NCBI GenBank assembly: GCA_045631245.1
Contig: JAZQUJ010000157.1
Span: 1,207 to 65,206 of the forward strand
Direction of reading: 5' to 3'
Source: Bianqueaceae bacterium
Lineage (GTDB): Bacteria; Bacillota; Clostridia; Lachnospirales; Bianqueaceae
DNA: 64,000 nucleotides
Part shown: piece after piece, positions 2,478 through 53,753 of the stretch
Layout of the letters: each line of letters starts with the position of its first letter
How positions within the stretch are numbered: position 1 is the stretch's first letter
Program-made: the position numbers and the translations under genes
The notes under the pieces: generated by a model
The model's input: only the letters and a program-made list of their open reading frames with translations
Database searches by the model: none
What the model was told of the DNA's origin: nothing

Positions 2478-4366
2478 ACATGGCTTCAGAGATGTTAAAA
2501 AGGCTTTCAGTAAAAGAAAACTATCGAAATATTAAGCAGTGTTTTCGTATTTTGAAGCAACTGGATCCTAAGTTTTTTGCTCTATCCGGGGTCATGCAGC
2601 TGCTTTCAGTATTGATTCCCTATATTACCTTGTGGTTATCTTCCTTTGTACTGGACGGATTTGAAAGGACAATGCCATATCATAAGATGATCATAGTCGT
2701 TTTGGCTTGTGTGGTTTTGGTTTTTTCGGTGCAGTGTGTTAAGAATTGGCTGGAGAATTTTTTGCGAGTACGTCAGTATAGGATTGCCAGACTGTATGAA
2801 TATATGAAACAGGAAAAACTGGTTCAGATGGATTACTCGAGAATTAACAGCCCTGAAGTAGAACAAATTTTACGGCGAATTGCATCAGATCAAAATTGGG
2901 GAGATCATTTCCATTCAATCATTCGTGGGCTGCATAACATTTGGGCAGCGATATTCAATGTGATTGGTGCCGTTGCACTAGGTCTTCCCATTTTAAAACA
3001 GATCATTCAATATGGGAGTTATGAAATTGCTGTCATAAGTTTAATATTGATAGTTGTTATAGCGATCGGGTTAAAATGCCGTTCTTATTTCTGGGCAAAG
3101 ATCATGCACTATATGTGGAGTACGCGGTCAAAAGAAGAGTTGACTTTGGACTGGTATTTCGCTGAGGATTTCCCCTATCAAAACGGAAAAGATATTCGTA
3201 TTTACGACGGCACAGAACTGGTGAAGGCATGGACTACTGATGTGTTCAAGCGAAAGGTCGTGAGAGACAATGCGCTGAAATATGGCTCTCTGGGCGAGGG
3301 TGGCTACGCCTTTTGCAGAAATATGCTGCGGGGAGCGGTGGAAGGTGCCGCCTATTTGATCGTGGGCATTCTGGCCATTGCCGGAGCCATGAGTATCGGC
3401 AGCGTGGTTCGCTTGGCCGGTTGCTTGAGAAACTTTATGTATGGCTTTGTGGAACTGATCTGTAGTCTGGATGATTTGGGCATGAGGGCGCATCAGCAGG
3501 TCAGCACCTTCGAATTCTTCGAACTGGAAGACGAAATGTACAAGGGCCGTCTGCCCATGGAAAAGCGCAGCGACAACCAGTACCAGATTGAATTTCGAAA
3601 TGTTTCTTTCAAATACCCCGGTTCTCAGGTGTACGCCCTGAAGAACTTTTCCATGAAGCTGAAGATCGGTGAAAAGCTGGCCATCGTGGGTATGAACGGA
3701 TCCGGCAAGACCACCATGATCAAATTGCTGTGCCGCCTCTATGATCCCGATGAGGGCGAGATCCTGCTGAACGGTGTGAACATCAAAAAGTTCAAACAGG
3801 AAGAATATAGCACCCTGTTTTCGGTGGTATTTCAGGATTATAACCTATTTCCCTTCAAACTGGGACAGAACGTGGCGCTGGATACACACTACGATGTGGA
3901 AAAAGTGGAAAAGTGCCTGCGGGATGCGGGTTTTGGTGATCGTCTGCAGGAGATGCCGGCGGGTCTTGATACCTATCTGTATACCGACTACGATGACAGT
4001 GGCGTCCAAATCTCCGGCGGCGAAGCTCAAAAGATCGCCCTGGCTCGGGCCATCTACAAAGATTCCCCCTTTATCCTGTTGGACGAGCCGACAGCTGCGC
4101 TGGATCCCCTATCGGAATATGAAATCTACACCCATTTCGATCAGATCGTAGGCGATAAGACGGCGATCTATATTTCACACCGCCTGTCTTCTTGCCGCTT
4201 CTGCGAAAAAATAGCCGTATTTCATGAGGGAAGCTTGATTCAATTGGGGAGCCACAAAGAATTATTGGCGGACACTGAAGGCAAGTATTATGAAATGTGG
4301 AATGCGCAGGCTCAGTATTATCGTGAACAGGGCAAGGGCTGGGAGAACCTGGTGGAAGAGGTGTAG
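2474..4366 (+). CDS. ABC transporter, fused permease/ATP-binding protein (partner of previous gene)
   Basis: ATGA start/stop overlap with the upstream gene. Walker A GMNGSGKTT, signature ISGGEAQK, Walker B ILLDEPTAALD. Confidence 0.9.
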   Translation: MNMASEMLKRLSVKENYRNIKQCFRILKQLDPKFFALSGVMQLLSVLIPYITLWLSSFVLDGFERTMPYHKMIIVVLACVVLVFSVQCVKNWLENFLRVRQYRIARLYEYMKQEKLVQMDYSRINSPEVEQILRRIASDQNWGDHFHSIIRGLHNIWAAIFNVIGAVALGLPILKQIIQYGSYEIAVISLILIVVIAIGLKCRSYFWAKIMHYMWSTRSKEELTLDWYFAEDFPYQNGKDIRIYDGTELVKAWTTDVFKRKVVRDNALKYGSLGEGGYAFCRNMLRGAVEGAAYLIVGILAIAGAMSIGSVVRLAGCLRNFMYGFVELICSLDDLGMRAHQQVSTFEFFELEDEMYKGRLPMEKRSDNQYQIEFRNVSFKYPGSQVYALKNFSMKLKIGEKLAIVGMNGSGKTTMIKLLCRLYDPDEGEILLNGVNIKKFKQEEYSTLFSVVFQDYNLFPFKLGQNVALDTHYDVEKVEKCLRDAGFGDRLQEMPAGLDTYLYTDYDDSGVQISGGEAQKIALARAIYKDSPFILLDEPTAALDPLSEYEIYTHFDQIVGDKTAIYISHRLSSCRFCEKIAVFHEGSLIQLGSHKELLADTEGKYYEMWNAQAQYYREQGKGWENLVEEV

Positions 4367-4443
4367 CCTTGACAATAGGGTAAGCATATGTTATACTTGA
4401 TGTACATTTCAATGATATAAGTAGTTGCATTCTATTTGCAAAC

Positions 4444-8060: not shown

Positions 8061-8831
8061 TTACAGGGGACGGACCTGTGGTCGGCCCACATAATTCAGC
8101 CCATACTTTTCCACCATGGACTGAGCCACTTTCAAGGATTCACCGTCATAAGCAGCGGCTACCTCATGGGCATCGAAACCAAAGGTAACGGGACAGCCCA
8201 CTTCACCGGCAACCTCCCAGAACAGCATGTTGGGGTAGGTGCGGCCCTCGCGGATGCCGAGGAAGTTGATCTCCAGCGGAATACCGCAGGACTTGGAGGC
8301 CTCGCACAGGCGGCGGGCTTCGGACTTGTAGATCGCTTCATCGCCTCTAAACATCAGCACGTCAGGATGAGCCACATAGGTGAAAACACCGGACTCGATT
8401 CCCTTAATAACGCTGTCAGTGTATTCCTTCAGATCCTCCACACTCTCGTTCTTACGGTAGGTGGCGCGGCCATTCGGATGCTCGCTGCCAAGAAAGTGCT
8501 GGCCTAAAATCAAATATTCAGCGCCCAGTTCCTTCACCATTTTCAGCATGGCATCGAAGTAGGCGGGGTAGTATTCCATTTCGTAGCCGATCTTGATGTC
8601 GATGCGGTCTTTATATTCCTCTCGCAGGGCAGAAATGGTTTCAAAATAATCAGCGGCCTGAGCATAGGGCACACGGTAGTGAGATTCGTAACCATCGGGG
8701 AAAACAAAGGTAGCATGATCAGAAAAGCCCATGTACTCTACCCCATTTGCAATGGCGCGTTCAATATATTCACGCTCGGTGCCGGAGGCATGGCCGCAGC
8801 GGGTGGTATGGGTGTGGTAATTGTAATTCAT
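8061..8831 (-). CDS. PHP-family histidinol-phosphatase-like protein
   Basis: MNYNYHTHTTRCGHASG is an N-terminal PHP metal-binding motif. Start placed at ATG 8831. Confidence 0.7.
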   Translation of the reverse strand: MNYNYHTHTTRCGHASGTEREYIERAIANGVEYMGFSDHATFVFPDGYESHYRVPYAQAADYFETISALREEYKDRIDIKIGYEMEYYPAYFDAMLKMVKELGAEYLILGQHFLGSEHPNGRATYRKNESVEDLKEYTDSVIKGIESGVFTYVAHPDVLMFRGDEAIYKSEARRLCEASKSCGIPLEINFLGIREGRTYPNMLFWEVAGEVGCPVTFGFDAHEVAAAYDGESLKVAQSMVEKYGLNYVGRPQVRPL

Positions 8832-8854
8832 AGTTGTATTCCTTAATTGAGTGA

Positions 8855-9169
8855 TCACCACCGCGGCAGAAGTGCAGCCAAATTGTACACATCTTCCTGG
8901 GCGGTTTGGTAGGTGTTAGCGCAGGCCCTTAGAGCACTGCTATAGTTTTTGAGAGATTCTTTGAAACGTTTTTCGGTGGAATCCGGAGCATCAACGGCTT
9001 CCCACTGACCGCCAAAGACCAAAGCATCCGGACCAATCCAGTCGGAGGTCAGCATGTTTTTAATGCTGGCGTTGGCATTGTTCATTTGGCGTTCCTGGAT
9101 TTCACAATAGTTATCAATGGCGTTGGCCATGTTACGCAGATCCTGATGGTTGACTTGTATAAGTGCCAT
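8855..9169 (-). CDS. WXG100-like small helical protein
   Basis: 104 aa, helical, with a central W-x-G (DWIGPDA). It is the last small gene of the T7SS effector cluster. Confidence 0.65.
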   Translation of the reverse strand: MALIQVNHQDLRNMANAIDNYCEIQERQMNNANASIKNMLTSDWIGPDALVFGGQWEAVDAPDSTEKRFKESLKNYSSALRACANTYQTAQEDVYNLAALLPRW

Positions 9170-9180
9170 GTCGATTTACC

Positions 9181-9480
9181 TCATAAGAATTGATCTGATA
9201 ATTTTGTATTAACGGTTTCGGCGTTTACATAGCCGGGAGTAACGGATTGCTGGAGCAGGTTTACATAGTTTTGCAGCACTGCAGACCGAGCCTCATTGCC
9301 GTTAAATAACTGATACATTAAACTGGCGGCAGCAGTGCCGGCGCGGCTGTTCCAGCTGTTTTCCATGGTATATCCGGCGGAGCGCAGAACATTAAAGGCA
9401 TCGTTCATGGCTGCATTGGAAGCGGAGAGCGTGTTGGCAGCTGCCAAAATGCCATCGGTGTTGACTTTTTGAATGGCCAT
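9181..9480 (-). CDS. WXG100-like small helical protein
   Basis: Start at ATG 9480 with a GGAGG RBS, giving 99 aa. Central SWNSRAG. The C-terminus (LSDQFL) resembles that of the EsxA-like gene (LGDQFK). Confidence 0.65.
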   Translation of the reverse strand: MAIQKVNTDGILAAANTLSASNAAMNDAFNVLRSAGYTMENSWNSRAGTAAASLMYQLFNGNEARSAVLQNYVNLLQQSVTPGYVNAETVNTKLSDQFL

Positions 9481-9484
9481 AGGA

Positions 9485-9700
9485 TCAGTCCTCCCCGTTG
9501 ATAAAGTCGGCAAGACGATTGGTGTCGACATTGTTCAGTCGTTTTAATACATACCGATACTTGTTGATAATGGTATCCAGAGAGTCGGCACAGAAATTTT
9601 GGCCGATGCCCTTAAAATCATAACGAACGCCATCTTCGATGGCAACCAGCTCGTTAATGATGGACTGGAGTTCGTTTCTGCAAGAATTAAGTGTAGCCAT
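9485..9700 (-). CDS. small helical protein (71 aa), possible effector chaperone/targeting partner
   Basis: Tightly packed between the hydrolase gene (2-nt gap) and the WXG-like gene. No motif recognised. Confidence 0.55.
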   Translation of the reverse strand: MATLNSCRNELQSIINELVAIEDGVRYDFKGIGQNFCADSLDTIINKYRYVLKRLNNVDTNRLADFINGED

Positions 9701-9702
9701 GG

Positions 9703-11544
9703 TTAACCTCCCATGTATTGCAAGGCTGTGTTATCAGCGGCTTCGAATTTGTCAGCGGCAGTGTTTAAAAAGCCTTGACAAAGGCGTACATTGACACTGT
9801 AGCTGGTTAAGATGTTGGCTTGGAGAATATCCCAAAGATCCAAAAATCCAACCTGCCAGTACAAATCGTTCAAATCACGATCCAAATCGCGGAGTCTGGA
9901 ATTGATACTGCCCAAACGGCGAGCATATTCGCGCAGCAAGGCGGGGTCAGCGGAAAAGTAAGGATTACTGCTGGCGTATTTTCCGCCGGGGCTGTTCTTG
10001 CGAAGGTATTCTTTGATTTTGCCGATTGCTTCTTTAATAGATTGCAAAGTCTGCAGAATAAATTCTTTGATGTCCTGAGCCAGATCGGAAATCTGTTCCA
10101 CAATAGCATAGAGGGCGTCGATGACAAATACAGCGAGTACTACAACCGATGTTACAGCAACTACAACACTGAGGAGGATCGGGTTGGTAACAATAGCGAT
10201 TGCAATGGCAAAGATATTCATAGCATTGTCTTTTATATAGTTTTGGATCATTTCAATAACGCCGAACTGATTCAAAACACTGTATACGGTCGCCGGATCG
10301 TTGGTGGCAGCCTCTATTAAGGCGGGAGCTGCCAGCACAAGAGCAGCAATGATTTTCTTTAAGTCGGCGTCAAAGCCGATAGACCCATCTTCGTTGATGA
10401 TCAGACAACCAAACAATGCTTCCAAAGCGTCTTTACGCCGATCTTCGGGAAGATCGTTGAAATTTTTGATGATAGATTCGATTAGTGCGGCTGTGTCAGG
10501 GTTGACTCCCAAATATTCAAGGGCAGGAGCCAGCATACCGGGGTTTTTGTTCAGGTAATCGACTAGAAGCGGAATCAAAAGCTCGGTGAAATCATCCAGA
10601 TCCTGTTGGGTCAGAACGGTTTGCTGATTACTGATTTTGCCATTACCAAGGTAGTATTCAGCAAATTTCATGGCCAGTTCAGCAGCTCGTGCCTGATCTT
10701 CCTGAGGCAGCGTGGTCACTTCAGCAGCGAAAGATTTAATAAACTCACGGAAAGGGGAGTCGTGATATTCGGTGCCTTCCGGGGGAAGGTTCAAGGAGCC
10801 GTTGGTGAGCATGCCGGTGACAACATGTGCATCATAGGGATTATGACTTGTTTCAAAAGAAGGAGTTGATACCACAGTGGTGTGTCCTTCGGGAATGATA
10901 TGAGTCTGTCCTAAAGGACTTACGAAATCAGATTCACCATTATAGGCGTAGATCTTATCACATTGACGATCGAAAAAAGCTTCGCCGTGCTGGTTGATGG
11001 CATCTTGGATCAGTTGCTCGGAAAAGCCAGGGCCATCTAGTGAGATACAGGTGTCGATGTAGTCACCATAGTGAGAGTTTATGGTAACATATTGGGCAGT
11101 ATTGCCCCCTTGAGAATGGCCAGATACATATACATTACCTGTGCCGGTATTTTCATAATGATTTTGGACAACTTCGTTGAAAAATGTTAATGCCTGCTCT
11201 TGAACCACCGAAGGTTGACCGTCATAGGCTTGGGTATTGTAACCCCATTTTCCATCACCGGTACCATTGAAGTGTACATAAAGGTTGCCGGCCTCATCTT
11301 TAAAGGCAATGGCTTTAGGACCAGTTACATTCACTGTTTGACCATTTTCGTAAAGGTAATCTGTGGTCTGCAGATTATGCACTGCAATAACTTCGAGATT
11401 ATGCTGCTGTATGCCTTCCATGCCGGGAACTTCAAATTTGATGGAAATCTTTGGGGATATGTTTGTAGTATACTCGGAGTCGGCATATTTACTAAAATCG
11501 GCTTCCAGATTAGCTGCTATATTTGCTAATACATCTTGATTCAT
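9703..11544 (-). CDS. alpha/beta-hydrolase (lipase-like) protein with hydrophobic segment and C-terminal helical domain; candidate T7SS effector
   Basis: Nucleophile elbow VYVSGHSQGGN at about aa 150. A roughly 45-aa hydrophobic stretch lies at about aa 440-490, followed by a helical C-terminal region of about 120 aa. The gene is in the same operon as essC/esx. Confidence 0.6.
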   Translation of the reverse strand: MNQDVLANIAANLEADFSKYADSEYTTNISPKISIKFEVPGMEGIQQHNLEVIAVHNLQTTDYLYENGQTVNVTGPKAIAFKDEAGNLYVHFNGTGDGKWGYNTQAYDGQPSVVQEQALTFFNEVVQNHYENTGTGNVYVSGHSQGGNTAQYVTINSHYGDYIDTCISLDGPGFSEQLIQDAINQHGEAFFDRQCDKIYAYNGESDFVSPLGQTHIIPEGHTTVVSTPSFETSHNPYDAHVVTGMLTNGSLNLPPEGTEYHDSPFREFIKSFAAEVTTLPQEDQARAAELAMKFAEYYLGNGKISNQQTVLTQQDLDDFTELLIPLLVDYLNKNPGMLAPALEYLGVNPDTAALIESIIKNFNDLPEDRRKDALEALFGCLIINEDGSIGFDADLKKIIAALVLAAPALIEAATNDPATVYSVLNQFGVIEMIQNYIKDNAMNIFAIAIAIVTNPILLSVVVAVTSVVVLAVFVIDALYAIVEQISDLAQDIKEFILQTLQSIKEAIGKIKEYLRKNSPGGKYASSNPYFSADPALLREYARRLGSINSRLRDLDRDLNDLYWQVGFLDLWDILQANILTSYSVNVRLCQGFLNTAADKFEAADNTALQYMGG

Positions 11545-11560
11545 CGGTTAGTCCTCTCTA

Positions 11561-12256
11561 TCATTCAACCTGTACAGTACCATTTAAAATGGTACCAAGG
11601 GCAGAGTAGACTTCTTGTTTCTTGACAATTAGATCGTGGAGTCCGTTGTGGTCTAATGTGCCAAAGATGTCATCTTGCACCACCACAAAGGAGACAGAAA
11701 TACGTCCTTTTACATCGGAAATAGTGTTTAAGTAGCTTTCAATGGCAGAGGCATCGGTAAAATTGGAATTGGAGATCTCCAGCATGACGGGAAGTACAGT
11801 GGAGGCATCTGCATAATAGTTCTCAAAGGAGGCATCTGCTGGAAGGTCAGCAGACAAACCCTGTTTGCTGGGAACATAGAAAGCATTGACTGTACCAAAT
11901 GTTTCGGCAGCAGTAGTTTGGAAAAAGTTGATGACTTCTTCCTGATATTTTACGGCATGATAATTATCCCGATAGATTGCTTCGTCAGATTTAAAGTTTT
12001 CTACCTGTACAAGAATTTGTTGTTCGGGTAGGCTTGCGCAGGTTACCAAAATCTCGCGATTACCCGACATGCTGTTGCCCCAGGGTGCAAAATAGGTGAA
12101 GGGTTCTCCGTATTTTTCTTCCATATAGGCCAGCGCGAGTTCGTTTGCATTGGGTTTGGGTTCGTTGGTAGTTGTTTGATTGATGCGCATACAGCCGGTT
12201 CCTCCTATAATAACAGCAGCTAATACGATAACTGCAAGAAATATCTTTTTAAACAT
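11561..12256 (-). CDS. lipoprotein (candidate immunity protein)
   Basis: Signal peptide plus lipobox MFKKIFLAVIVLAAVIIGGTGC. It lies immediately upstream of the hydrolase gene. Confidence 0.7.
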   Translation of the reverse strand: MFKKIFLAVIVLAAVIIGGTGCMRINQTTTNEPKPNANELALAYMEEKYGEPFTYFAPWGNSMSGNREILVTCASLPEQQILVQVENFKSDEAIYRDNYHAVKYQEEVINFFQTTAAETFGTVNAFYVPSKQGLSADLPADASFENYYADASTVLPVMLEISNSNFTDASAIESYLNTISDVKGRISVSFVVVQDDIFGTLDHNGLHDLIVKKQEVYSALGTILNGTVQVE

Positions 12257-12370: not shown

Positions 12371-12676
12371 TTACTTGAACTGGTCACCCAACTGGGTGTT
12401 TCTGGTTTCGGTCTCGGTATACTGTTCAGCTACGTTGGTGCGCAGGAACTTAACGTACTGCTCCAAAACATCGAAATAAGTCTGGAAATATTTTCCGGCA
12501 AAGGAGTCATAAGAAGTACGGGTTTGATCGGCAGCAGCACCGGTCCAGGAAGTGGAAAGGCCGTCAATGGTTGCCTTACTGTCATTCAGCAGGTTCTGCA
12601 GTTCCTGATTGTCGGCTTCGATCTGAGAGGCAATGGCTAATACTTGATCACTGTTAAGTACGATACGAGTTGACAT
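12371..12676 (-). CDS. esxA: WXG100 family type VII secretion substrate (EsxA-like)
   Basis: 101 aa with a central STSWTGAAA (W-x-G) motif in a helix-turn-helix layout. Confidence 0.8.
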   Translation of the reverse strand: MSTRIVLNSDQVLAIASQIEADNQELQNLLNDSKATIDGLSTSWTGAAADQTRTSYDSFAGKYFQTYFDVLEQYVKFLRTNVAEQYTETETRNTQLGDQFK

Positions 12677-12689
12677 ATTTTTTACCTCC

Positions 12690-12986
12690 TTAATTCATCA
12701 GCTGTTTTACGCCGGTGGTGTTATTGTCACGTACAGTTTCATAATTGGTGGCCTGCTGGTTCAAAGTCTGAGAAGCCTGTTCCAAATGGTTTGCCATGGT
12801 TTTCAGCTCTTCGCAGAAGCCGTTCAGCTGTTCTACAAAAGCCAGGTTATCGGCGGAGTTCCAAGCATCGCCCATGGTCTGGGCCGCGTTTAGCAGACGA
12901 TTGTAAACAGTAGTATAATCCTGGGAAAGCTGACTGAATTTCTGAGCTGCAGAGTGCAGTACTGGGGGATCTACGGTAAAATTCAT
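12690..12986 (-). CDS. WXG100-like protein (EsxB-like partner)
   Basis: 98 aa, helical, with central GDAWNSAD. It lies adjacent to the esxA-like gene. Confidence 0.7.
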   Translation of the reverse strand: MNFTVDPPVLHSAAQKFSQLSQDYTTVYNRLLNAAQTMGDAWNSADNLAFVEQLNGFCEELKTMANHLEQASQTLNQQATNYETVRDNNTTGVKQLMN

Positions 12987-13054: not shown

Positions 13055-13306
13055 TCAGATAAGAATGAGGCGAGAAGCGTTGCGAATACCGGCTTCTTCA
13101 ACGGTATCGGTCAGGGTATAGGGCAAACCGGTATCGGCACTGAGCAGCATGGAATCGGCAGTGCCTTTATAGACTCCCTCAGAAAGGGAGTCTGCCAGAT
13201 TTACCAACAGACGGGTCACCTCGCCGATCGGTTTGCTGTCAGGCAAAAATACATCCAAATGCTTGCCGGCAGCCGGAAGATAAACATCGACCAGATATTT
13301 TTTCAT
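13055..13306 (-). CDS. esaB: EsaB/YukD-like ubiquitin-fold T7SS protein
   Basis: 83 aa from ATG 13306 (GGAGGT RBS). The beta-grasp-like sequence is MKKYLVDVYLPAAGKHLDVFLP. It lies directly downstream of essC. Confidence 0.65.
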   Translation of the reverse strand: MKKYLVDVYLPAAGKHLDVFLPDSKPIGEVTRLLVNLADSLSEGVYKGTADSMLLSADTGLPYTLTDTVEEAGIRNASRLILI

Positions 13307-13324
13307 AGCGGGTACCTCCATCCA

Positions 13325-16300
13325 TTATTCTGCGAATTTCACAAGCGTTGCTGCTGCATTATCGATGCAGTAACCAAAGCTCTTTTCCACAGAAGCGTTA
13401 TAACCTTGCGGTTTTTGAGTAACATTCAAACGATACTGCGAGCTGATACCATTTCCGATCCACATACCATGATTCGGATTGATCTGAACCTTATACCAGT
13501 TTTCAGCGGTAAAAGGTGTAAGAGCCTGCAAAGATTCGGCTACAATAAAGTATACGCCATAGGCCTTGGCACATTTCTCCATTGCGATCTTAAGTCGATT
13601 CAAAGGTGTATCGTCGGAGGCCTCGGTGTTTTTCACCACATAGCCGTCCAACAAAGATTTCAGCTGAGCCATGGACTGGATCACCACGAACAAGGGTTCA
13701 AAGGTGGGCAGTTCTTTGCCGGCGGCAACAGCTTCTTTGTAGGTGTTATTACGGATCAATACCTGCTGGAAAATATCGTAGGCAGCCTGAACACAGGTAT
13801 CGCGGGACTCGCAAACCTGCAGGGCCGCTGTTTCTGGCAGGGTTTTACCACAGCCAGCGGGGGCCAGCAGCAGAGTCTTAACTCCGTAAGAATCGGCCAG
13901 CAAGGCGGCCAAAGATTCTGTGAAGGGCTTCCACTCCTGATTCTGAGAAAGGATCAGATGCACCGGCTGAGTCAGCGGATCGAAACGGGCAATTTCCAGC
14001 GTTTCCTTTTCTACGCCCACCGGGATCGTACTCAGATCGGCAGCGTTCACATAGGCAGCTAAATATTCGGCGGTCACCACCTCAGGCAGCACCGGAACAC
14101 CAACAGCTCTATGATGTTTGTAGCGATCAGCCAGTTCTTTACTGAAGCTGCGCAGGAACTGATACTGGGAGGCTTCTTTGGTAACACAGGCCGTCTGGAA
14201 TTCAACAACCTGATCTTTACCGAAGCGAATCATACCACGACCCACATGATCCTCGGGAAGCAAACCGCCGGTTTTGCCAACCACGTTGGCATAATCGCTG
14301 GTATTGTTCATTTGCAGGCAGTAGAGGCACTTGAAGTTTTGCATCATGCTAAAACGTACATTGTTTACACCGGTACAGGTCAGCACGAAGTAAATACCGT
14401 ATTTGGTACCCTCGCGGGTTAGGTAATTGATGTCGCCCAGGCGTTCTTCGAACAGCTCGGAAAAACCGGCGTAGTTGTTAATGAAAACAACAATATTGGG
14501 TTCGGGCTTGGCAGCGTGGGCATTGTACTCGGTCAGGGAACCGCCGTACTGGGACAGCAGCTTTTTGCGGGTATTCAGCTTGCCCTGCAGCAGCTTGAAC
14601 AGGTTTTCGACCTTCTCGGTCTCGTGCGCCAGGATCACATCGCCCACATGGGGAGCCTCGGCCAACGAGGTCAGCGTTTCGGCGCCCAGATCCATAATGT
14701 ACAGATTCACTTCCTCGGGGGTGTGCTCGGTCATGAGGGAGTAGCACATGGCTTCAACAAACATGCTCTTACCGCTTCCGGCAGAGCCGTAAACAATGAC
14801 GTTGCCATCGGCACTGAGCGGCACGCGCAGCAGACCCTGGGCCTGATGCTGCGGATCGTCATACTCGCCCACGACGGGGTTCAGTTCAAAACGGTTGGCA
14901 GGAGCAACACCGGAATACTTCTCTTTCAGCTGATCCACATAAACCTTGGCAGGAATGGGATCCAGCCACATTTTCCAGCGGCGGATATTCTCTTCTTCGC
15001 TGATCTTTTGAATGTAGTCGGTAATGGCATCCAGCTGTTTGCTGGCATCTTTCTGGTTCGGATAGCGGTCGGTGTTGACCTCAGCGATTACACGACCATT
15101 GGTGTTAATAACGGAAACTGCATCGTCCAGCTCTTTGATTACATTGGGTGCGGGATGATAGAAGGCGCCGGCCCAGGCGGACTGGCCCAGTTCGAACAAT
15201 TCATTGTTGCCTACCTGCAGGTAGAAGCGGCCGGTATCCACCAAAGAAGCGGCTTCCGGACGGCCCATCATTTCGGTGCTGTCGCCGCGATCCTGTACCT
15301 TCAGGCACAAGCGGAAGCGGCTATTGCTTCGAATTTGATCATCCACTACACCGCCGGGCTTCTGGGTAGCCAAAATCAGATGTACACCCAGGCTTCGGCC
15401 TACGCGGGCGGTACTGGTCAGAGCGGCCATGAAGTCGGGCTGATCTTTTTTCAATTCCGCAAACTCATCGGATATGATGATCAGATGGGGCAGGGGTTCG
15501 GAAACCTTGCCTTCGCGGTATAGCTTCTGATATTTATAAATGTCGATGTTACTGATGTTATATTGTTTGGAGACTTTCTGGAAAATGAGTTCGCGGCGAT
15601 GCAGTTCGCTCTGCATGGACACCAGCGAACGGTTGATGGCATTGCCGTCCAAGTTGGTAATAATACCGGCTGTATGGGGAATGTCTTCGAAAGCTTTCGC
15701 CATGCCGCCGCCTTTATAGTCGATCAAAATGAAGGCGACTTCGTTGGGGTGATACTGAATGGCCATGGAAAGAATATATGCGATAATGGTTTCACTCTTA
15801 CCGGAACCGGTCATACCGGCGATCAAACCATGGGGGCCGTGAGCCTTTTCATGCAGATCCAACATAAAGGGATCGCCATAGGGGTCGATACCAATGGGTG
15901 CGGCCAAAGATTTGGTGGGATCGTTGGCGGACCAGTTTTCCAGCAGATTGATGTGTTCAACCATGCCCACATCCATCATTTCCATGAAAGTGTATTTCTT
16001 AGGAAGCTGGAAAGAGGAATCGTTGATATCCAGGAAGGTATTGGCCAAAATCTGGGTAATACGTTTTAAGTCGATGTGCTTGGGATTGTCCACCTGGAAG
16101 GGCAGAGGAAGATCGCAAACATCGTTCAGCAAGGTTAAGGAGCCGCCGCCCTGTTTGTTCAGCTGTACAACAGCGGAACATTCCTTAGGCAGATCCTTTA
16201 AGCGCTCATACATTGACAGCACGGAGATGCCCAGATTATCTTTAGAATCCAGAATCGAACGAAGGAACTCAGCACGGGAGGCCAGTTTTTTGTCAAGGCA

Positions 16301-17971
16301 GATCACCACATAATAGGGAAGTTCATCTTCCAACTGTTCGGGGTTGAGCGATTTACGATACTCCACAATGGCATCCATGTCGGCGGAAAGGTTTTTCACT
16401 TCTTCCGGATTAGTGGCAATGTAGCGGATGCGGCGCTCGTTGTTCATAGTATGGGGCAGCCAACGAACGAAGGAGAGCTCGTCTTCATCTTTTTCGTTAT
16501 AGAGAAGCACCAATTTGACTTCATCGTAACTGTGCAGGGTGGTCAGCTGCAGCAGCAGACTTTTTACGTACTGCATCAGCTGATCACGGGTGGAATAGAT
16601 ACCACTGATGAAGCGCTCTCTCAAAGACAGACAGATAGGAACGTTATTCAGCCAGCGTTCCCGCTCACCGAATTGATACATGGCTTCAGTCAGATTATCA
16701 TGTTCCACAGCAAAGTGGCGCTCGGAATACTGAATATCGGCATTTAACGGAAGACGACCGACACCCAAACGCAGGCGCAAAAAGTCGGAGTGCTTGGGGG
16801 TGCGCTCCCAAATATGCAACGGAGTCGCATTGAAGCGATTCAGATAGTCGACAGTAATGGCATCATTTTCACGCAGGATCTGCTCCTGATTTGTGATCTC
16901 GTTGGCGACGCGCTGTTCCATTTGCTGCAGATAATTGGAATAAGCGGTTTGACGCGCCTGTTCCTTTTTCGCAGCATTCTTTTTCTGATAGTTTTTAGTC
17001 AGGGTCGGCCAAAGCAAAGTACCGGCCAACATACTGATACTCATCATGATGGAAGGAAGGGCGGAACCAAAATTACCGGTTCCGGCTGCATTGACCACAG
17101 AGAACAAGGCAGAAGTGGCAGAGGCCATACCCATGGTGATGGAGGGGCCCAGTGTCATAATGGCCGGAAGGGATTCACTGTTTTGCCCGGAAGGAGGGGC
17201 ATCCAGTTTCAGTTCAAAGGTGTCCACATCGTGTTTGAAGCGGGGAGCGCGATAGTAGAAGTCGATATCTTCTTCCGCTTCTGCTGTGGTATCGGGAGCG
17301 GTCAGATTCGGCTGATAGCCGGCACTATGATGTTCCCGCAGCCAACGGCTGTGGACTGTAACGGCTCCATCGGGATTGTTAATATACAAGAAGCGACCTG
17401 TTACCACAATCTGCAGGCCCATGATGTAGATTACATCGCCGGTATTCAAAGGCGCCTGGCTGACAGCAGTACCATTCACGAAGGTACGGTTCAAACTGTT
17501 ATGGTCGATCACGCCCATCTTTTTGGAAGCGACGTGAATGGTGGCATGATTTTTGCCGATATAGCCGCTGGCATATTGGATATCGCACTCAGGACCACGA
17601 CCGATCTCCAACTTCAAATCGCCCTGCATGAGCTCATAAACCCGGTATTGCTTGCGATCATTGCTAAGCGGTTCGGTGAACAAACGGTATTCGAAACGTC
17701 CGTCGCTGCTGCGGATCACATAGAGCGCACGGAGTCCGAGCACGAGTTTTTCGATGCGCTCCTGCCCTTGATTCATAATATAAAAATGTGAGTTGGACTT
17801 TAAGATCCAATGTCCGTTGGGTTCTTCAGCAGTAGGACGTACACCTTCCACGGCTACGATTTTGACCGGATTTCCATCAGGTCCTTTAGCAGTGAGCCAA
17901 TATTGACCGGCGCATTTGTCGGGTAATAAGACTGTATTGAAGGCGGAATGAGAAAAAACTGTAATTTTCAT
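13325..17971 (-). CDS. essC: type VII secretion FtsK/SpoIIIE-family ATPase EssC
   Basis: Start at ATG 17971 (AAGGGGA RBS). It has N-terminal FHA-like modules and a TM region. Three P-loops are present: GMTGSGKSE, GSAGSGKS and APAGCGKT. Confidence 0.9.
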   Translation of the reverse strand: MKITVFSHSAFNTVLLPDKCAGQYWLTAKGPDGNPVKIVAVEGVRPTAEEPNGHWILKSNSHFYIMNQGQERIEKLVLGLRALYVIRSSDGRFEYRLFTEPLSNDRKQYRVYELMQGDLKLEIGRGPECDIQYASGYIGKNHATIHVASKKMGVIDHNSLNRTFVNGTAVSQAPLNTGDVIYIMGLQIVVTGRFLYINNPDGAVTVHSRWLREHHSAGYQPNLTAPDTTAEAEEDIDFYYRAPRFKHDVDTFELKLDAPPSGQNSESLPAIMTLGPSITMGMASATSALFSVVNAAGTGNFGSALPSIMMSISMLAGTLLWPTLTKNYQKKNAAKKEQARQTAYSNYLQQMEQRVANEITNQEQILRENDAITVDYLNRFNATPLHIWERTPKHSDFLRLRLGVGRLPLNADIQYSERHFAVEHDNLTEAMYQFGERERWLNNVPICLSLRERFISGIYSTRDQLMQYVKSLLLQLTTLHSYDEVKLVLLYNEKDEDELSFVRWLPHTMNNERRIRYIATNPEEVKNLSADMDAIVEYRKSLNPEQLEDELPYYVVICLDKKLASRAEFLRSILDSKDNLGISVLSMYERLKDLPKECSAVVQLNKQGGGSLTLLNDVCDLPLPFQVDNPKHIDLKRITQILANTFLDINDSSFQLPKKYTFMEMMDVGMVEHINLLENWSANDPTKSLAAPIGIDPYGDPFMLDLHEKAHGPHGLIAGMTGSGKSETIIAYILSMAIQYHPNEVAFILIDYKGGGMAKAFEDIPHTAGIITNLDGNAINRSLVSMQSELHRRELIFQKVSKQYNISNIDIYKYQKLYREGKVSEPLPHLIIISDEFAELKKDQPDFMAALTSTARVGRSLGVHLILATQKPGGVVDDQIRSNSRFRLCLKVQDRGDSTEMMGRPEAASLVDTGRFYLQVGNNELFELGQSAWAGAFYHPAPNVIKELDDAVSVINTNGRVIAEVNTDRYPNQKDASKQLDAITDYIQKISEEENIRRWKMWLDPIPAKVYVDQLKEKYSGVAPANRFELNPVVGEYDDPQHQAQGLLRVPLSADGNVIVYGSAGSGKSMFVEAMCYSLMTEHTPEEVNLYIMDLGAETLTSLAEAPHVGDVILAHETEKVENLFKLLQGKLNTRKKLLSQYGGSLTEYNAHAAKPEPNIVVFINNYAGFSELFEERLGDINYLTREGTKYGIYFVLTCTGVNNVRFSMMQNFKCLYCLQMNNTSDYANVVGKTGGLLPEDHVGRGMIRFGKDQVVEFQTACVTKEASQYQFLRSFSKELADRYKHHRAVGVPVLPEVVTAEYLAAYVNAADLSTIPVGVEKETLEIARFDPLTQPVHLILSQNQEWKPFTESLAALLADSYGVKTLLLAPAGCGKTLPETAALQVCESRDTCVQAAYDIFQQVLIRNNTYKEAVAAGKELPTFEPLFVVIQSMAQLKSLLDGYVVKNTEASDDTPLNRLKIAMEKCAKAYGVYFIVAESLQALTPFTAENWYKVQINPNHGMWIGNGISSQYRLNVTQKPQGYNASVEKSFGYCIDNAAATLVKFAE

Positions 17972-18239
17972 AAAACTTCCCCTTGTGAAAAATGTCGAAA
18001 TTATTATTACTATTATAGTATTTTCTAGAAAAGGTGTCAATTAAAATAACTCCCCGATGAAGAAAGTAATGAGTTTAAAGCTAAATAAAATTTTTATCAG
18101 GGAGTCTGAAATTATAAAGAAAAAATCTTCTTTAATACCACAAAAGAAGGTGGCTTTACAACCGAAAATATGGTAAGATAAAAATAGCCTGTTGCTTTAT
18201 TGATGGGTTAGTAAATGAAAATAATGAGGATTCATATAT

Positions 18240-18848
18240 ATGTTCAAACGAATTTTAGCAGTGATCTGCACAGCCATGCTTGTGTTGACCGGCTGCGGCA
18301 GCGATTACAGCGATGCACAGGTGGAGGTGCCCGCCAACTGGGCGGAGTACACCGTGGGCAACATGGAGTTTCGCTTCGAAGCAGGCTGGAAGGGCGGCAA
18401 CTGGGACAGCGTGCTGGCTGAGGCGGATAAACAGGCCGAGACCATTGGAACCAACAATAATCTGGCACTGTTCGGCCGACTGGTGGCGCCCACTTCGGCT
18501 CAGGATACCACTAATTATGTAGATTTCGGCTATTGGGAAATGGGGCATCAGGTGGAGACCGTCGAACTGGAAGCTCTTATGGAACCCATCAACGACCTGT
18601 TGCTGGAAATCAAAAAAACCGGCATCGAGTCCAACGATCTGCAGGCCAGCCGTATCCGTTTTTATGGTGAAGTGGAAGCTCTGACCTGTAGTTATCTAAT
18701 GGAAAAGGAAAATGTTCATTGCGTCATGCAAATGGCGCTGATCCCCCATGGCAGTCAGGTGTACTTCATTTGTCTGTCCGATTTTACCTCCGGTGCCGAT
18801 AACAGCATGCTGGAACAACTGCTGTCCACCCTGAGTTTTGCCGGCTGA
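18240..18848 (+). CDS. lipoprotein of unknown function
   Basis: Lipobox MFKRILAVICTAMLVLTGC. Divergent from essC. Confidence 0.7.
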   Translation: MFKRILAVICTAMLVLTGCGSDYSDAQVEVPANWAEYTVGNMEFRFEAGWKGGNWDSVLAEADKQAETIGTNNNLALFGRLVAPTSAQDTTNYVDFGYWEMGHQVETVELEALMEPINDLLLEIKKTGIESNDLQASRIRFYGEVEALTCSYLMEKENVHCVMQMALIPHGSQVYFICLSDFTSGADNSMLEQLLSTLSFAG

Positions 18849-37804: not shown

Positions 37805-38281
37805 ATGATGGGTTTGCGTGAAATTAGAAAGAGCAGGAATATGTCGCAAAGTGAATTAGCGGCTATGTGTGGTATAAACTATCGATCTCTTCAAGATTAT
37901 GAGCAAGGACACAAAAAGCTCATGTCAGCAAACGGAGATATTCTGCTGCGGTTATCAACCGTTCTTGGCTGCAGTATGCAGGAACTATTATTAACCGATC
38001 AGGTAGCCGGTGCCTCTTTGCATAGAGGAAACAAAGTGGATATTGCGACGATTCAGAGTCAGCAATTCTTTTGCGAAAAATATAATGTAGCCGGCCGATG
38101 GATTTGTGGAAATGATTCGATTGCTACTATGTTTTACTTTAGAGGTAAGCAGTATTGTTTGCCTTTTAAAGCTGTGTTTACACCTGTTATGCTGCCTTGT
38201 TTAGCCGAGGCCGCTGCCTTGCAGATTGAAGAAAAAATAGATGATATTCTATTTCAGGAAGATGGGTTTGAGGAATGGTGA
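37805..38281 (+). CDS. XRE-family HTH protein (HipB-like antitoxin with C-terminal extension)
   Basis: Start at ATG 37805 after GGAGGTGG. HTH sequence RKSRNMSQSELAAMCGINYRSLQDYEQG. Confidence 0.75.
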   Translation: MMGLREIRKSRNMSQSELAAMCGINYRSLQDYEQGHKKLMSANGDILLRLSTVLGCSMQELLLTDQVAGASLHRGNKVDIATIQSQQFFCEKYNVAGRWICGNDSIATMFYFRGKQYCLPFKAVFTPVMLPCLAEAAALQIEEKIDDILFQEDGFEEW

Positions 38282-38285
38282 TTAT

Positions 38286-39446
38286 ATGGATGAGTTGAAA
38301 TTCAGTTTAATGCATAAAGATGATCCGGTATGTGCTGTGACGATGGATGCCGATTCCGGTGCAATGCTGCGTGTATCTAAACCGATCCATCCAGAACTGC
38401 TTCCGCCGGGTGGGAATATGGATGCATCTAAACTTCGCAAATGGTGGCAGCTCCGCGCGGTTCCTATGGACCAAGGAAAAATTATGCGAATTATTGAACA
38501 GGCGGGTTTTTCTACGACTCAAAAATACCTTGTTCGAAACTGGGGTTTGAGTTTGACGGATCATTATTGGATCAAGCCTCTTGACGTGGAGCTAAGCTGG
38601 GATGATGTGAATTTATTCACGAATGATTTTCGTGATCCGGTTGGTGACATGCAATTTGCGGATGTGATTGGAAAGTCATTAGAGCTTCCTCAAAATGCCT
38701 TCTCCCCCAGCTCTTCTCTTCAAGGAAATCTTAGGAAAAAATGGGTGATTACAAATGGAAAGCGTTGCCTTATAAAAGCAAATCATGGCAGTAATTCACA
38801 GGAAAGCCTTAATGAAGTGGCGGCAACATTGCTGCATTTCAAACAGGAAAAACAACCTTATGTATCGTACGCACCAATTCATGGGAATACAGACGATTCG
38901 ATCCATTGTATATGTGAAAGCTTTACTTCTGATTCGATTGAACTGTTAACTGCTTATGATATGATTGAGTCTGTTAATTGTCCAAGCTCGGTGTCTAGCT
39001 ATGAGAATTTCATTCGTGTTTGTGAAAGTCATGGACTGAGCGAAGAGGTAAGTCGACCTTTTCTGGAATATCAGATTGTAACAGATTTTGTGCTCACCAA
39101 TACAGATCGGCATTTGCGGAATATTGGTGTTCTGCGAAATACGGATACTCTGCAATTGATCGGCATGGCACCAATCTTCGACACCGGAAATTCAATGTTT
39201 TGGGATAATCCCCGGCTGCCACTCCATCAGGACTTAACGGATATCGAGGTAAATAGCTTCAGATCAAAGGAATCACAGCTTCTTAAGTATGTGCAAAGCC
39301 AAAATCGGGTGGATATATCCAAGTTGCCAAGTGAGGATGAGTTGCGGGCAATTTACGAGAAAGATCTGTTGTTTACACAGTTCAATTCCATCTTCTTAGG
39401 CTATCAGAAGAAAATTGATCTGTTGGCAAGACAAAATTTGATTTGA
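38286..39446 (+). CDS. HipA-like serine/threonine kinase toxin
   Basis: LTDHYWIKP, the catalytic loop TNTDRHLRNIGVL and PIFDTGNS. Confidence 0.75.
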   Translation: MDELKFSLMHKDDPVCAVTMDADSGAMLRVSKPIHPELLPPGGNMDASKLRKWWQLRAVPMDQGKIMRIIEQAGFSTTQKYLVRNWGLSLTDHYWIKPLDVELSWDDVNLFTNDFRDPVGDMQFADVIGKSLELPQNAFSPSSSLQGNLRKKWVITNGKRCLIKANHGSNSQESLNEVAATLLHFKQEKQPYVSYAPIHGNTDDSIHCICESFTSDSIELLTAYDMIESVNCPSSVSSYENFIRVCESHGLSEEVSRPFLEYQIVTDFVLTNTDRHLRNIGVLRNTDTLQLIGMAPIFDTGNSMFWDNPRLPLHQDLTDIEVNSFRSKESQLLKYVQSQNRVDISKLPSEDELRAIYEKDLLFTQFNSIFLGYQKKIDLLARQNLI

Positions 39447-49128: not shown

Positions 49129-50789
49129 TGCAAATTGAAAATATTACCCTCAGAACAAAGCGAATGATCGACGACCTTAAGACCATCTGCGCCAACTTCG
49201 GCTTGGGTGGCTCTCCCGGCGAGTATAAGATCATCACGCAGGTGTTCCTGTATAAATACCTCAGTGACAAATTTCTCTATGAAGCAAAGAAAGCAGAGCC
49301 TACGCTTGCCAATGCAGAAAACATCGAGGAAGCGCTGTCTGCCATGCCGGATGATCAGTACGAAATGCTCGGCTATATGCTTGGCGGCAGTACGGCCAAG
49401 TTGAAAAAAACACACTATATTTCCTATCTGTTCAACCATCAGAATGATGAAACCATGCGTAAAGCAGACGGCAACATTTATCTCTTCCATGAGCTATTTG
49501 ATGATACGCTGGTGGATATCGCCAACCACAACCTTGATATTTTCTCGGTACAGACCGGTGGCGAAGAGAAGATTCGTCTGTTCGATCCGATTTCTCAGTA
49601 TGTCATTGAGAGCGTTAAGAAGCCTCCGTTCTGCCGCGCCATCATCAATAAACTGGTGGAGTTCAGCTTTGCCGATGTGTTTGAACAGAAGTATGATTTC
49701 TTTGCACAGATTTTCGAGTATCTGATCAAGGACTACAACAAGGACTTCGGTAAGTACGCCGAATACTATACCCCACACGCCATCGCAAACATTATCGCCC
49801 GTATTATGGTACAGGGCGATGTTAGCAATGTGTCCGTCTATGACCCCGCAGCCGGTTCCGGCACACTGGTATTGGCTCTGGCACACCAGATCGGTGAGGA
49901 TAACTGTACCATTTTCACGCAAGATATCTCTGCCAAATCCAACGAGTTCCTGCGCCTGAATCTGATTCTCAATAACCTTGTCCACTCTCTGGGCAATGTG
50001 GTGCATGATGATACGCTGATTGCGCCCCGCCACCTGAATGCCAAGAAAAACAGACTGGCACAGTTTGACTATATTGTCAGCAATCCGCCCTTCAACATGG
50101 ATTTCAGCGATAATCAACCGGAGCTGGCAAGTGATAAGCACAAGGAGCGCTTCTTCGCCGGTGCGCCCAGCATTCCGAAAAAGGACAAGGATGGCATGGC
50201 AATTTACCAGCTGTTCATCCAGCACATTCTGTACTCCCTTGCACCCAAGGGCAAAGCCGCTATCGTTGTACCCACCGGTTTTTTGACTGCCGGATCGGGC
50301 ATCCCCAAAAAGATCCGCGAGTATTTGGTAAAAAACCGGATGCTGCGTGGTGTGGTTTCCATGCCCTCCAATATCTTTGCTACCACCGGCACCAATGTTT
50401 CCATCCTGTTCCTTGACCGCGAAAACACCGATGGCAATGTGATTTTGATGGATGCGTCTAAACTTGGCACAAAGGTAAAACTGGACGGCAAGAATCAGCG
50501 CACCGTATTAAGTCCAGAAGAAATCGCGAAAATCATCGATACTTTCAACGCTGGAAAAGCCGAGGATGATTTCTGTGTGGCGGTCAGTTATTTGGATATC
50601 GAGGCAAAGAAGCTTTCCTTCTCCGCCGGTCAGTATTTCGAGGTCAAGATTGAATATGTGGAGCTGACACCTAAAGAATTTGCTGATAAGATGAACGGTT
50701 TTGCTTCCCAATTAGATGAACTGTTCGCAGAAAGCCGTCGTTTGGAGGATGAGATTAAGGTACAGTTGGGGCGGGTGAAATATGAGTAG
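49128..50789 (+). CDS. hsdM: type I restriction-modification N6-adenine methyltransferase subunit
   Basis: TAATG overlap with hsdR. Motif I DPAAGSGT and motif IV SNPPFN. Confidence 0.9.
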   Translation: MQIENITLRTKRMIDDLKTICANFGLGGSPGEYKIITQVFLYKYLSDKFLYEAKKAEPTLANAENIEEALSAMPDDQYEMLGYMLGGSTAKLKKTHYISYLFNHQNDETMRKADGNIYLFHELFDDTLVDIANHNLDIFSVQTGGEEKIRLFDPISQYVIESVKKPPFCRAIINKLVEFSFADVFEQKYDFFAQIFEYLIKDYNKDFGKYAEYYTPHAIANIIARIMVQGDVSNVSVYDPAAGSGTLVLALAHQIGEDNCTIFTQDISAKSNEFLRLNLILNNLVHSLGNVVHDDTLIAPRHLNAKKNRLAQFDYIVSNPPFNMDFSDNQPELASDKHKERFFAGAPSIPKKDKDGMAIYQLFIQHILYSLAPKGKAAIVVPTGFLTAGSGIPKKIREYLVKNRMLRGVVSMPSNIFATTGTNVSILFLDRENTDGNVILMDASKLGTKVKLDGKNQRTVLSPEEIAKIIDTFNAGKAEDDFCVAVSYLDIEAKKLSFSAGQYFEVKIEYVELTPKEFADKMNGFASQLDELFAESRRLEDEIKVQLGRVKYE

Positions 50790-51969: not shown

Positions 51970-51980
51970 GGTGATTTAAT

Positions 51981-52718: not shown

Positions 52719-52732
52719 GGAGGATTGAACAA

Positions 52733-53689: not shown

Positions 53690-53753
53690 AACTGTAGCCT
53701 GCCAGCGCACTTGCTACAGGTATATTGACGCCGCACGAAAAGGAGTGCCTATT

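Follow-up and report, generated by a model that had tools for sequence, protein, structure and literature searches.

What is the function of five genes that lie directly downstream of the core genes of a secretion system of type VII (T7SS) in a Bianqueaceae bacterium? The genes occupy positions 8855-12256, on the minus strand, of a 64,000-nucleotide stretch of assembly GCA_045631245.1 (contig JAZQUJ010000157.1), and this whole stretch is called the window here. The initial annotation placed a five-gene cluster immediately after essC-esaB-esx, and all five open reading frames (ORFs) were recovered there. From the ORF listing and translation the gene row reads essC, yukD, two WXG100 genes, a lipoprotein gene, a gene for a 613-aa lipase-like protein and genes for three small proteins (s71, s99 and s104), all on the minus strand. 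The five ORFs were accepted as real genes and not chance ones because each has orthologues, arranged as in the window, at more than 40 independent loci. By analogy with TslA, TilA and TlaA of Staphylococcus aureus, the five genes probably form one effector-immunity-partner module of a T7SSe-like T7SS. Seen directly in the sequence were the structure of the genes, the domain anatomy with its invariant catalytic residues, strict linkage to T7SS genes, copy-number variation and co-divergence of the C-terminal domain with the machine and partners.

Domain Organization of the 613-aa Lipase Protein

The lipase protein is encoded at 9703-11544 (minus strand) and has an N-terminal PF11187 domain. The layout given by the initial annotation was confirmed, with the nucleophile elbow GHSQGG in the N-terminal part, a hydrophobic segment at approximately residues 440-486 and a C-terminal region of approximately 128 residues that is predicted to be helical. 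Residues 1-300 (10645-11544, minus strand) were identified by PF11187, AlphaFold2 (AF2) and Foldseek as an Mbeg1-like/DUF2974 class-3-lipase-like alpha/beta-hydrolase, as the initial annotation had suspected. PF11187 (Mbeg1-like, formerly DUF2974) matched residues 77-182 with an E-value of 2.7e-12 and 47.1 bits, compared to a gathering cut-off of 21.1. The same precomputed domain is present in most of the lipase homologues. AF2 gave a confident alpha/beta-hydrolase for residues 1-300, with a mean predicted local distance difference test score (pLDDT) of 76 for the whole model. The Foldseek neighbors of this domain were class-3 lipases and feruloyl esterases (2ix9, 1uza, 3o0d and 5ap9), including feruloyl esterase A and Lip2 (3o0d). 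The lipase 3o0d is the one to which the TslA (PMC10730906) and TslM (PMC13560087) papers both liken their proteins. A sequence search of the PDB with the 613-aa protein returned only a designed helical protein, which matched the hydrophobic and helical region, and was uninformative.

An alignment of 31 homologues (31-82% identity) showed H91, G94-T95-x-D97-G98-x-W100, G142-H-S144-Q-G146, D170-G171, D206 and H240 to be invariant. The elbow GHSQGG spans residues 142-147, and the codon of Ser144 is at 11113-11115. In a relaxed profile alignment, itself not significant, S144, D206 and H240 are in register with S164, D224 and H251 of TslA, which are the residues mutated in the TslA study (PMC10730906). 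The triad spacing is 62 and 34 residues here compared to 60 and 27 in TslA.

The lipase domain is followed by an all-helical middle domain (residues 301-439; 10228-10644, minus strand), for which AF2 predicted helices with a pLDDT of about 60-88. It is the fastest-evolving part of the lipase protein, and comparable divergence was found only in the lipoprotein. Residues 440-486 (10087-10227, minus strand) form a hydrophobic helix-Pro-helix hairpin, a putative membrane-inserting element, recognized by Kyte-Doolittle analysis with a 19-residue maximum of 3.04. AF2 confidence was low across residues 445-520. The hairpin is conserved across the family in character and not in sequence, as two short hydrophobic helices around a proline with a turn that is often charged. 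In 87% of the full-length family representatives the hydrophobic peak is located approximately 168 residues before the C-terminus.

The C-terminal helical domain comprises residues 487-613 (9703-10086 with the stop codon, minus strand) and was delimited by a family profile and AF2. The AF2 helices are at residues 534-563, 567-580 and 584-610. The consensus is NPYFxADTxxLRxYAxRL...LYWQVGxLDLWDIL...GG. The conserved G-x-L (G566, L568) is placed at a turn because the predicted turn falls on Q564-V-G566. G-x-L is found at the equivalent turn of TslA, in which L312 is required for secretion (PMC10730906). The domain is called LXG-like here because of the predicted helical hairpin and the conserved G-x-L turn, and for no other reason. 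Mean identity to the window protein was 54% for the last 128 residues compared to 52% for the catalytic core. We propose that this is the T7SS targeting and partner-binding domain.

The Lipoprotein and Three Small Proteins

The 231-aa protein (11561-12256, minus strand) had been annotated as a lipoprotein, and this was upheld. Its N-terminus, MFKKIFLAVIVLAAVIIGGTGC, is a signal peptide followed by the lipobox cysteine (lipobox GGTGC, Cys22). A GG[TSY]GC lipobox is present in most aligned orthologues, and the cysteine is kept in the rest of those with a recovered N-terminus. No Pfam family at E <= 1 and no NCBIfam family matched the protein. Its AF2 model (pLDDT 86) had a single fold match, to the Ruminococcus gnavus DUF5037 lipoprotein 4gl6 (E 1.8e-6). 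By analogy with TilA, the lipoprotein is proposed to be an extracytoplasmic immunity protein for the lipase. DUF5037-like lipoproteins in general may be lipase-immunity proteins.

The helical protein s71 (71 aa; 9485-9700, minus strand) has orthologues in every locus and matched nothing in any library. Its orthologues share an ECRxELRSII...IGQDLCxxC...NRLA pattern. Two cysteines are conserved in the family, one of which is a serine in the copy of the window. We propose that s71 either partners the C-terminal domain directly or acts as its chaperone.

The WXG100-like protein s99 (99 aa; 9181-9480, minus strand) is a clear paralogue of the core protein WXG100 B (hhalign 98.9%, E 1.6e-17). The mechanical ORF is 116 aa long, and the ATG at 9480 is preceded by the Shine-Dalgarno sequence GGGGAGGA. 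The protein matched NCBIfam ESAT6_2 (6.8e-6) and scored 19.3 bits against PF06013, compared to a cut-off of 27.3. A Y-x-x-x-E motif near the C-terminus, numbered Y333 and E337 in the paired alignment, does not vary. This belongs to the motif class that is read by T7SS ATPases in other systems, according to the discussion of the TslA paper (PMC10730906), and s99 is proposed to carry the export signal. The second WXG100-like protein, s104 (104 aa; 8855-9169, minus strand), has a conserved LPKWLYW-type tail. Its WXG100 scores were below threshold for PF06013 (3.7e-5; 24.3 bits, cut-off 27.3), and TIGR03930 matched at 1.4e-5. Profile comparison of s104 with WXG100 gave hhalign probabilities of 17-31%. 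Of the W-x-G turns that had been attributed to two of the small proteins, the one in s104 is a true W-I-G. The turn of s99 reads W-N-S in the window, and W-x-G is found in some of its orthologues.

Distribution, Gene Order and Copy Number

Homologues of the lipase formed 58 clusters, nearly all from Clostridia metagenomes. Relatives were found at 17 loci of metagenome-assembled genomes (MAGs) of Oscillospiraceae, Lachnospiraceae, Ruminiclostridium, Fusibacter, Defluviitaleaceae and Clostridium. Members of the family are plentiful in metagenomes from the gut, the rumen and elsewhere, including human-gut contigs, and no homologue was found in a plasmid collection. In this lipase-selected sample the nine-gene block from essC to s104 is strictly collinear in at least 12 independent loci. 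In close relatives VWA+FHA and PP2C genes usually precede essC, and a TPR-Ser/Thr kinase gene usually comes right after s104.

A second sample was drawn through WXG100 A because the first had been selected on the lipase itself, which introduces ascertainment bias. It comprised 80 metagenome loci, 30 of which extended at least 3.5 kb beyond WXG100 B. The module was present in 28 of these 30, always with three WXG-like or helical partners. Two of the 30 loci had no lipase, 17 had one copy and 11 had two or three. In the two that lack it (L038 and L045) the T7SS genes stop after WXG100 B and the module has been lost. A further locus with a shorter flank (L090) has a 72-aa remnant of s104 (4183-4401) between WXG100 B and a DUF6382+FHA gene and no lipase module. 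The repeated unit in L073, L079, L080 and L083 is lipoprotein plus lipase, ahead of a single partner set, and because of this several lipases are suggested to share one set of partners. In L059 and L063 the lipase, s71, s99 and s104 are all duplicated, and the first lipase of L059 is a 95-aa fragment. Instead of standing alone as an island, the cassette belongs almost constantly, though in varying copy number, to one type of T7SS locus.

The window has the T7SSe marks of an FHA-bearing TsxC, a YukD-like TsxB and two WXG100 genes. The published hallmarks of T7SSe also include the TseD kinase, the TseF PPM phosphatase, TseJ (DUF6382+FHA), TseH/TseK and the Ig-like TseI (Garrett et al. 2024, PMC11217815). 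No homologue of the kinase or PP2C phosphatase genes of the relatives was found in the 64 kb; DUF6382/TseJ, TseH/K and TseI were not directly searched for. The distant loci L023, L024 and L090 contain the T7SSe hallmarks DUF6382+FHA, PP2C and kinase. The lipases of L023 and L024 have the same C-terminal domain, and L023 also encodes a giant protein with a faint Big_13 (Ig-like) match.

A profile of the C-terminal domain was searched against 1.84 billion proteins, with clusters at 50% identity as representatives. The domain was found in 615 representatives, of which 477 scored below 1e-10. In the 150 best matches it is at the end of the protein in all but P0008, a 799-aa protein (L001, 10001-12400) in which a linker rich in Gly/Ser and a weak CHAP-like domain (cell-wall hydrolase) come after it. 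P0008 therefore has its putative targeting domain mid-protein, and the hairpin of this protein gave a weak Oleosin match. A DUF2974-like N-terminal domain with G-H-S-x-G-G was present in 79 of the 97 full-length best-scoring representatives. Ten outliers were scanned against Pfam. Eight were divergent Mbeg1-like proteins, some of them also Lipase_3-like, with GHSLGG or GHSKGG, and the other two matched nothing.

Two variant arrangements were noted. A Defluviitaleaceae MAG contains a T7SS toxin island (L015, 4716-12217) with no EssC within 10 kb. Its genes include a WXG100 gene, DUF4176 genes and genes for two small membrane proteins and for a WXG-type toxin with a long Gly-rich C-terminus. Two lipoprotein paralogues are encoded in tandem, together with a DUF2974 protein of 741 aa whose helical C-terminus is different and longer. 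In a subgroup of human-gut and other contigs (L092-L098) the lipase is short, approximately 367-376 aa, and the s71 gene is upstream of it; the heuristic used detected no adjacent lipoprotein in this subgroup.

Sequence Divergence Within the Module

Pairwise identities and divergence correlations were calculated over ten complete loci, so n is small and the pairs are not independent. Mean pairwise identity was 0.62 for EssC, 0.69 for WXG100 A and 0.66 for WXG100 B. It was 0.55, 0.45 and 0.52 for s71, s99 and s104, respectively. Within the lipase protein it was 0.46 for the C-terminal domain, 0.40 for the lipase domain and 0.29 for the middle domain, and the lipoprotein had a value of 0.31. Evolution of the lipoprotein and of the N-terminal domain of the lipase is thus much faster than that of EssC.

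Divergence of the C-terminal domain follows that of EssC, WXG100 A and WXG100 B and especially that of s71 (Spearman rho 0.72-0.84). When the EssC signal was removed, the correlation of the C-terminal domain with s71 was r = 0.68; the value for the WXG100 A and WXG100 B pair was 0.78. The lipase domain is largely uncoupled from the machine (0.3-0.4). Judged from these sequences, such a pattern would be expected of a machine-facing targeting domain fused to a toxin domain that is free to diversify.

Operon Structure and Surrounding Genes

The module shares one operon with essC. A likely operon promoter, TTGACA-17-TATAAT, is located just upstream of essC (18012-18040, minus strand) and has 12 of 12 matches to the sigma-70 consensus. 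It is the single strong promoter-like site, and no terminator-like site was found in the intergenic gaps of the operon. An AGGAG-type ribosome-binding site precedes the ATG of every gene in the row. The essC gene (TsxC) encodes a membrane ATPase of the FtsK/SpoIIIE type that begins with an FHA domain (Pfam FtsK_SpoIIIE 5.7e-54, FHA 1.4e-13) and is located at 13325-17971 (minus strand; ORF listed to 18040). The mechanical TTG start at 18040 is taken to be the -35 box because of the perfect promoter there, and the true start is the ATG at 17971, with a GGGGAAG ribosome-binding site. Orthologues of EssC are 51-62% identical and head the same gene block in relatives.

The next gene (13055-13321, minus strand) encodes a YukD/EsaB-like ubiquitin-fold protein. 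The PF08817 match was weak (E 5.6e-5; 24.3 bits, cut-off 27), and the assignment is backed by gene position and conserved orthologues. Its true start is probably the ATG at 13306, which has a ribosome-binding site and gives a protein of 83 aa like the orthologues. Core WXG100 A (98 aa; 12690-12986, minus strand; PF06013 3.3e-11) is 49-77% identical in relatives. Core WXG100 B (101 aa; 12371-12676, minus strand; PF06013 8.6e-9) has a Y-x-x-x-E close to its C-terminus.

The T7SS locus of the window is minimal, in that the only membrane components found were EssC and the lipase/lipoprotein pair. The ORFs scanned around the cluster included no EssA, EssB or EsaA. The VWA-FHA, PP2C and kinase genes of the relatives have no homologue anywhere in the window, and an Rfam scan of the whole window gave no match.

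A PHP/HisJ-type histidinol phosphatase gene (8061-8861, minus strand) is directly downstream of s104. At a Lachnospiraceae locus (L003, 16056-18749) hisZ-like, hisG and hisD genes come after the T7SS block, and the T7SS island may adjoin histidine-biosynthesis genes in more than one lineage. On the other side, a 202-aa ORF with a hydrophobic N-terminus (18240-18848, plus strand) is divergent from essC. It had no family match and was not found beside essC in the related loci examined. Beyond it is nrdDG. An unrelated defence-type island is present on the plus strand (38241-39446 and 46129-58168). It encodes a HipA-like kinase and, at 46129-51969, the R, M and S components of a type I restriction-modification system. 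A protein with PLD-nuclease, helicase and DUF3427 parts is encoded at 53553-56909, and one with a RelA/SpoT domain at 56909-58168.

Proposed Function of the Module

If the five genes do act as an effector-immunity-partner module, the 613-aa protein would be made in the cytoplasm with no Sec signal. Its C-terminal hairpin, s71 and s99/s104 would assemble into a helical pre-secretion bundle, after the examples of TslA with TlaA1/2 and of LXG proteins with Lap. The Y-x-x-x-E signal for recognition by the EssC-type ATPase would be given by s99. The partners or the middle domain would probably shield the hydrophobic hairpin, which is speculative. After export the hairpin could insert into the outer leaflet of a membrane and tether the N-terminal lipase. 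The tethered Ser144-Asp206-His240 lipase would then hydrolyze phospholipids and damage a competitor, and the lipoprotein on the outer face of the producer membrane would block the lipase and so confer immunity.

Several points weigh against this reading. Secretion, lipase activity, toxicity and immunity are assigned by analogy. Neither Pfam nor PDB-sequence nor profile-profile comparison significantly matched the C-terminal domain to WXG100 or LXG, which ruled it out as a recognizable WXG100/LXG domain of the kind that the initial annotation had asked about. A promiscuous C-terminal module carried by other toxins was also rejected, as only lipase-type fusions were found. At the sensitivity used, the lipoprotein family (20 clusters) is not expanded as orphan immunity genes. 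Divergence of the lipoprotein is weakly coupled to that of the lipase domain (partial r 0.37), and their co-divergence was not retained as evidence of immunity. A strongly hydrophobic hairpin in an exported protein that is made in the cytoplasm needs a shielding mechanism. Polymorphic toxins do not usually have the fixed position and near universality that the module has at its locus, and a conserved part of the machine, accessory or core, would suit these features equally well.

The last point leads to an unlikely explanation in which the 613-aa protein and the lipoprotein are conserved structural or accessory parts of the T7SS, such as a hydrolase that stabilizes or gates the channel or that remodels the envelope, and not a toxin and its immunity protein. 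MycP in the mycobacterial ESX systems is a loose parallel for a membrane-anchored hydrolase as a machine part. The site between the esx and kinase/phosphatase genes is fixed in nearly all loci, the hairpin is family-wide and the C-terminal module is never on non-lipase toxins, all of which suits a machine part, while the CHAP-like domain of P0008 recalls wall-remodelling helpers. The minimal locus of the window points the same way, with EssC otherwise its sole membrane protein and with the EssA/EssB/EsaA, VWA-FHA, PP2C and kinase searches negative as described above. Against a machine part stand loci of the same type that lack the module (L038, L045 and, apart from the s104 remnant, L090) and the one to three copies elsewhere, each commonly with its own lipoprotein. 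It also sits poorly with the two lipoprotein genes and DUF2974 set of the L015 toxin island, which has no EssC within 10 kb, and with a lipase and lipoprotein that evolve much faster than the machine, the lipase domain being decoupled from it. The core-machine explanation was downgraded because the lipase-independent sample includes loci without the module and loci with up to three copies. An effector-immunity module fits better because copy number ranges from zero to three with lipoprotein and lipase repeating together.

It is quite unlikely that the lipase is exported by the T7SS to act on something other than a bacterial competitor, such as host or eukaryotic membranes, dietary or host lipids, or the envelope of the producer (for example in vesicle release), with the lipoprotein as a maturation or anchoring partner. 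The abundance of the family in gut, rumen and other metagenomes would agree with such a role, as would the weak lipoprotein/lipase coupling and the lack of orphan lipoprotein expansion. The founding Mbeg1 protein was itself found as an NF-kB-inducing effector of a human-associated bacterium. The order lipoprotein-lipase is that of tilA-tslA, however, and the pair duplicates as a unit; antibacterial-type T7SS cassettes stand alongside in L015, and DUF2974 is among the listed effector domains of the bacteria-killing type IV secretion system X-T4SS. DUF2974 proteins are also among the distant homologues of a Bacteroides type VI secretion system (T6SS) effector. A housekeeping membrane-anchored esterase that is beside T7SS genes by chance, which the initial annotation had named as the result that would overturn its interpretation, is very improbable. 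Two loci (L007 and L014) have no EssC in the flank, but their contigs are short or truncated. The presence of the lipase with its three partners in nearly all independently sampled T7SS loci speaks against chance, as do the co-divergence of EssC and the C-terminal domain and the single operon with essC.

Within the effector-immunity reading, a more tentative and rather doubtful proposal takes the hairpin to be oleosin-like and the lipase to be a self-anchoring T7SS effector. It would be exported as a soluble bundle with s71 shielding the hairpin, and would insert monotopically into the outer leaflet of the target, holding the lipase on its substrate. Eag chaperones shield T6SS effectors in a similar sense. 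If true, it would be the first case of a T7SS effector that brings a device for membrane insertion of its own and has a partner dedicated to shielding, and it could explain the reverse build of T7SS lipases. More broadly, the module points to lipase warfare as routine in gut Clostridia and suggests a lipase-immunity function for DUF5037-like lipoproteins. Single, double and triple copies, hairpin-less paralogues and the CHAP fusion provide natural variants for the study of ATPase recognition. The T7SSe-like locus type is common in uncultured gut, rumen and other Clostridia.

Comparison With Known Systems

The initial annotation regarded TslA as the only precedent for the reversed domain order. 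Its interpretation is supported in substance and its claim of novelty was overstated, as Tsl2/TslM (2026) and the T7SSe/T7SSg reverse lipases (2024) also exist. The Tsl1 system of S. aureus consists of TslA, the DUF576 lipoprotein immunity protein TilA and the partners TlaA1 and TlaA2 (Garrett et al. 2023, PMC10730906). TslA sequences were taken from the supplement of that paper. The two systems have the same gene logic, as had been claimed, with the order immunity-like lipoprotein, lipase and small helical partners mirroring tilA-tslA-tlaA1-tlaA2. Both have an N-terminal lipase with a Ser-Asp-His triad at nearly the same spacing and, at the C-terminus, an all-helical domain with a G-x-L turn, which is the targeting domain of TslA and the proposed one here. 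Both are located at or beside T7SS loci in multiple paralogous copies, and TilA is likewise an extracytoplasmic lipoprotein. The differences are that TslA matches Lipase_3 weakly and not PF11187, that the lipoprotein here is not DUF576, unlike TilA, and that there are three partners here, two of them WXG100-like, compared to two. The helical middle domain of approximately 140 aa and the hydrophobic hairpin of approximately 45 aa are further differences; the initial annotation was correct that this insert has no TslA counterpart (Kyte-Doolittle maximum 0.97 in TslA). The subtype here is T7SSe-like and the hosts are Clostridia. Membership in Tsl1 was rejected on the basis of hhalign against TslA (10%, 17% relaxed) and the different Pfam assignment.

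The Tsl2 system of S. aureus comprises TslM, TlaM and TilM (Higginson et al. 2026, PMC13560087). It has a single partner, and immunity is provided by divergently encoded DUF1433 membrane proteins (PMC13560087). The TslM partner is a 99-residue WXG100 protein and s99 is also 99 aa long. In contrast to Tsl2, the cassette has three partners and a co-oriented lipoprotein, with no DUF1433 match. The linker of TslM is predicted to be unstructured, whereas here a helical middle region is followed by the hydrophobic hairpin. The cassette family thus differs from the published description of Tsl2 in partner number and in the type of its immunity candidate.

The LXG/Lap systems of T7SSb have a composite helical targeting signal with small partners, one bearing F/YxxxD/E, as is proposed for the cassette, and share an immunity gene, here a candidate one, that adjoins the toxin domain. 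Domain and gene order are reversed here compared to LXG/Lap, and there is no LXG Pfam match.

Reverse lipase toxins at T7SSe (Neobacillus) and T7SSg (Paenibacillus) loci were mentioned in one sentence by Garrett, Higginson and Palmer in 2024, and DUF2974 is listed 74 times in the essC neighborhood supplement of the same paper (PMC11217815). Compared by locus hallmarks, these lipases probably belong to the same family as the cassette lipase. The published account says nothing of the hairpin or the lipoprotein, of the set of three partners, or of a module that is nearly constant in position and variable in copy number. In August 2026 the TslM authors still counted only two reverse families. The cassette probably represents a third family of reverse T7SS lipases, judged by sequence against TslA and by published description against Tsl2 and the T7SSe/T7SSg lipases. 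With 615 clusters the family is large. Its lipase subfamily and its candidate immunity protein are different, it has three partners and carries a hairpin of its own, and it would extend C-terminal targeting beyond T7SSb.

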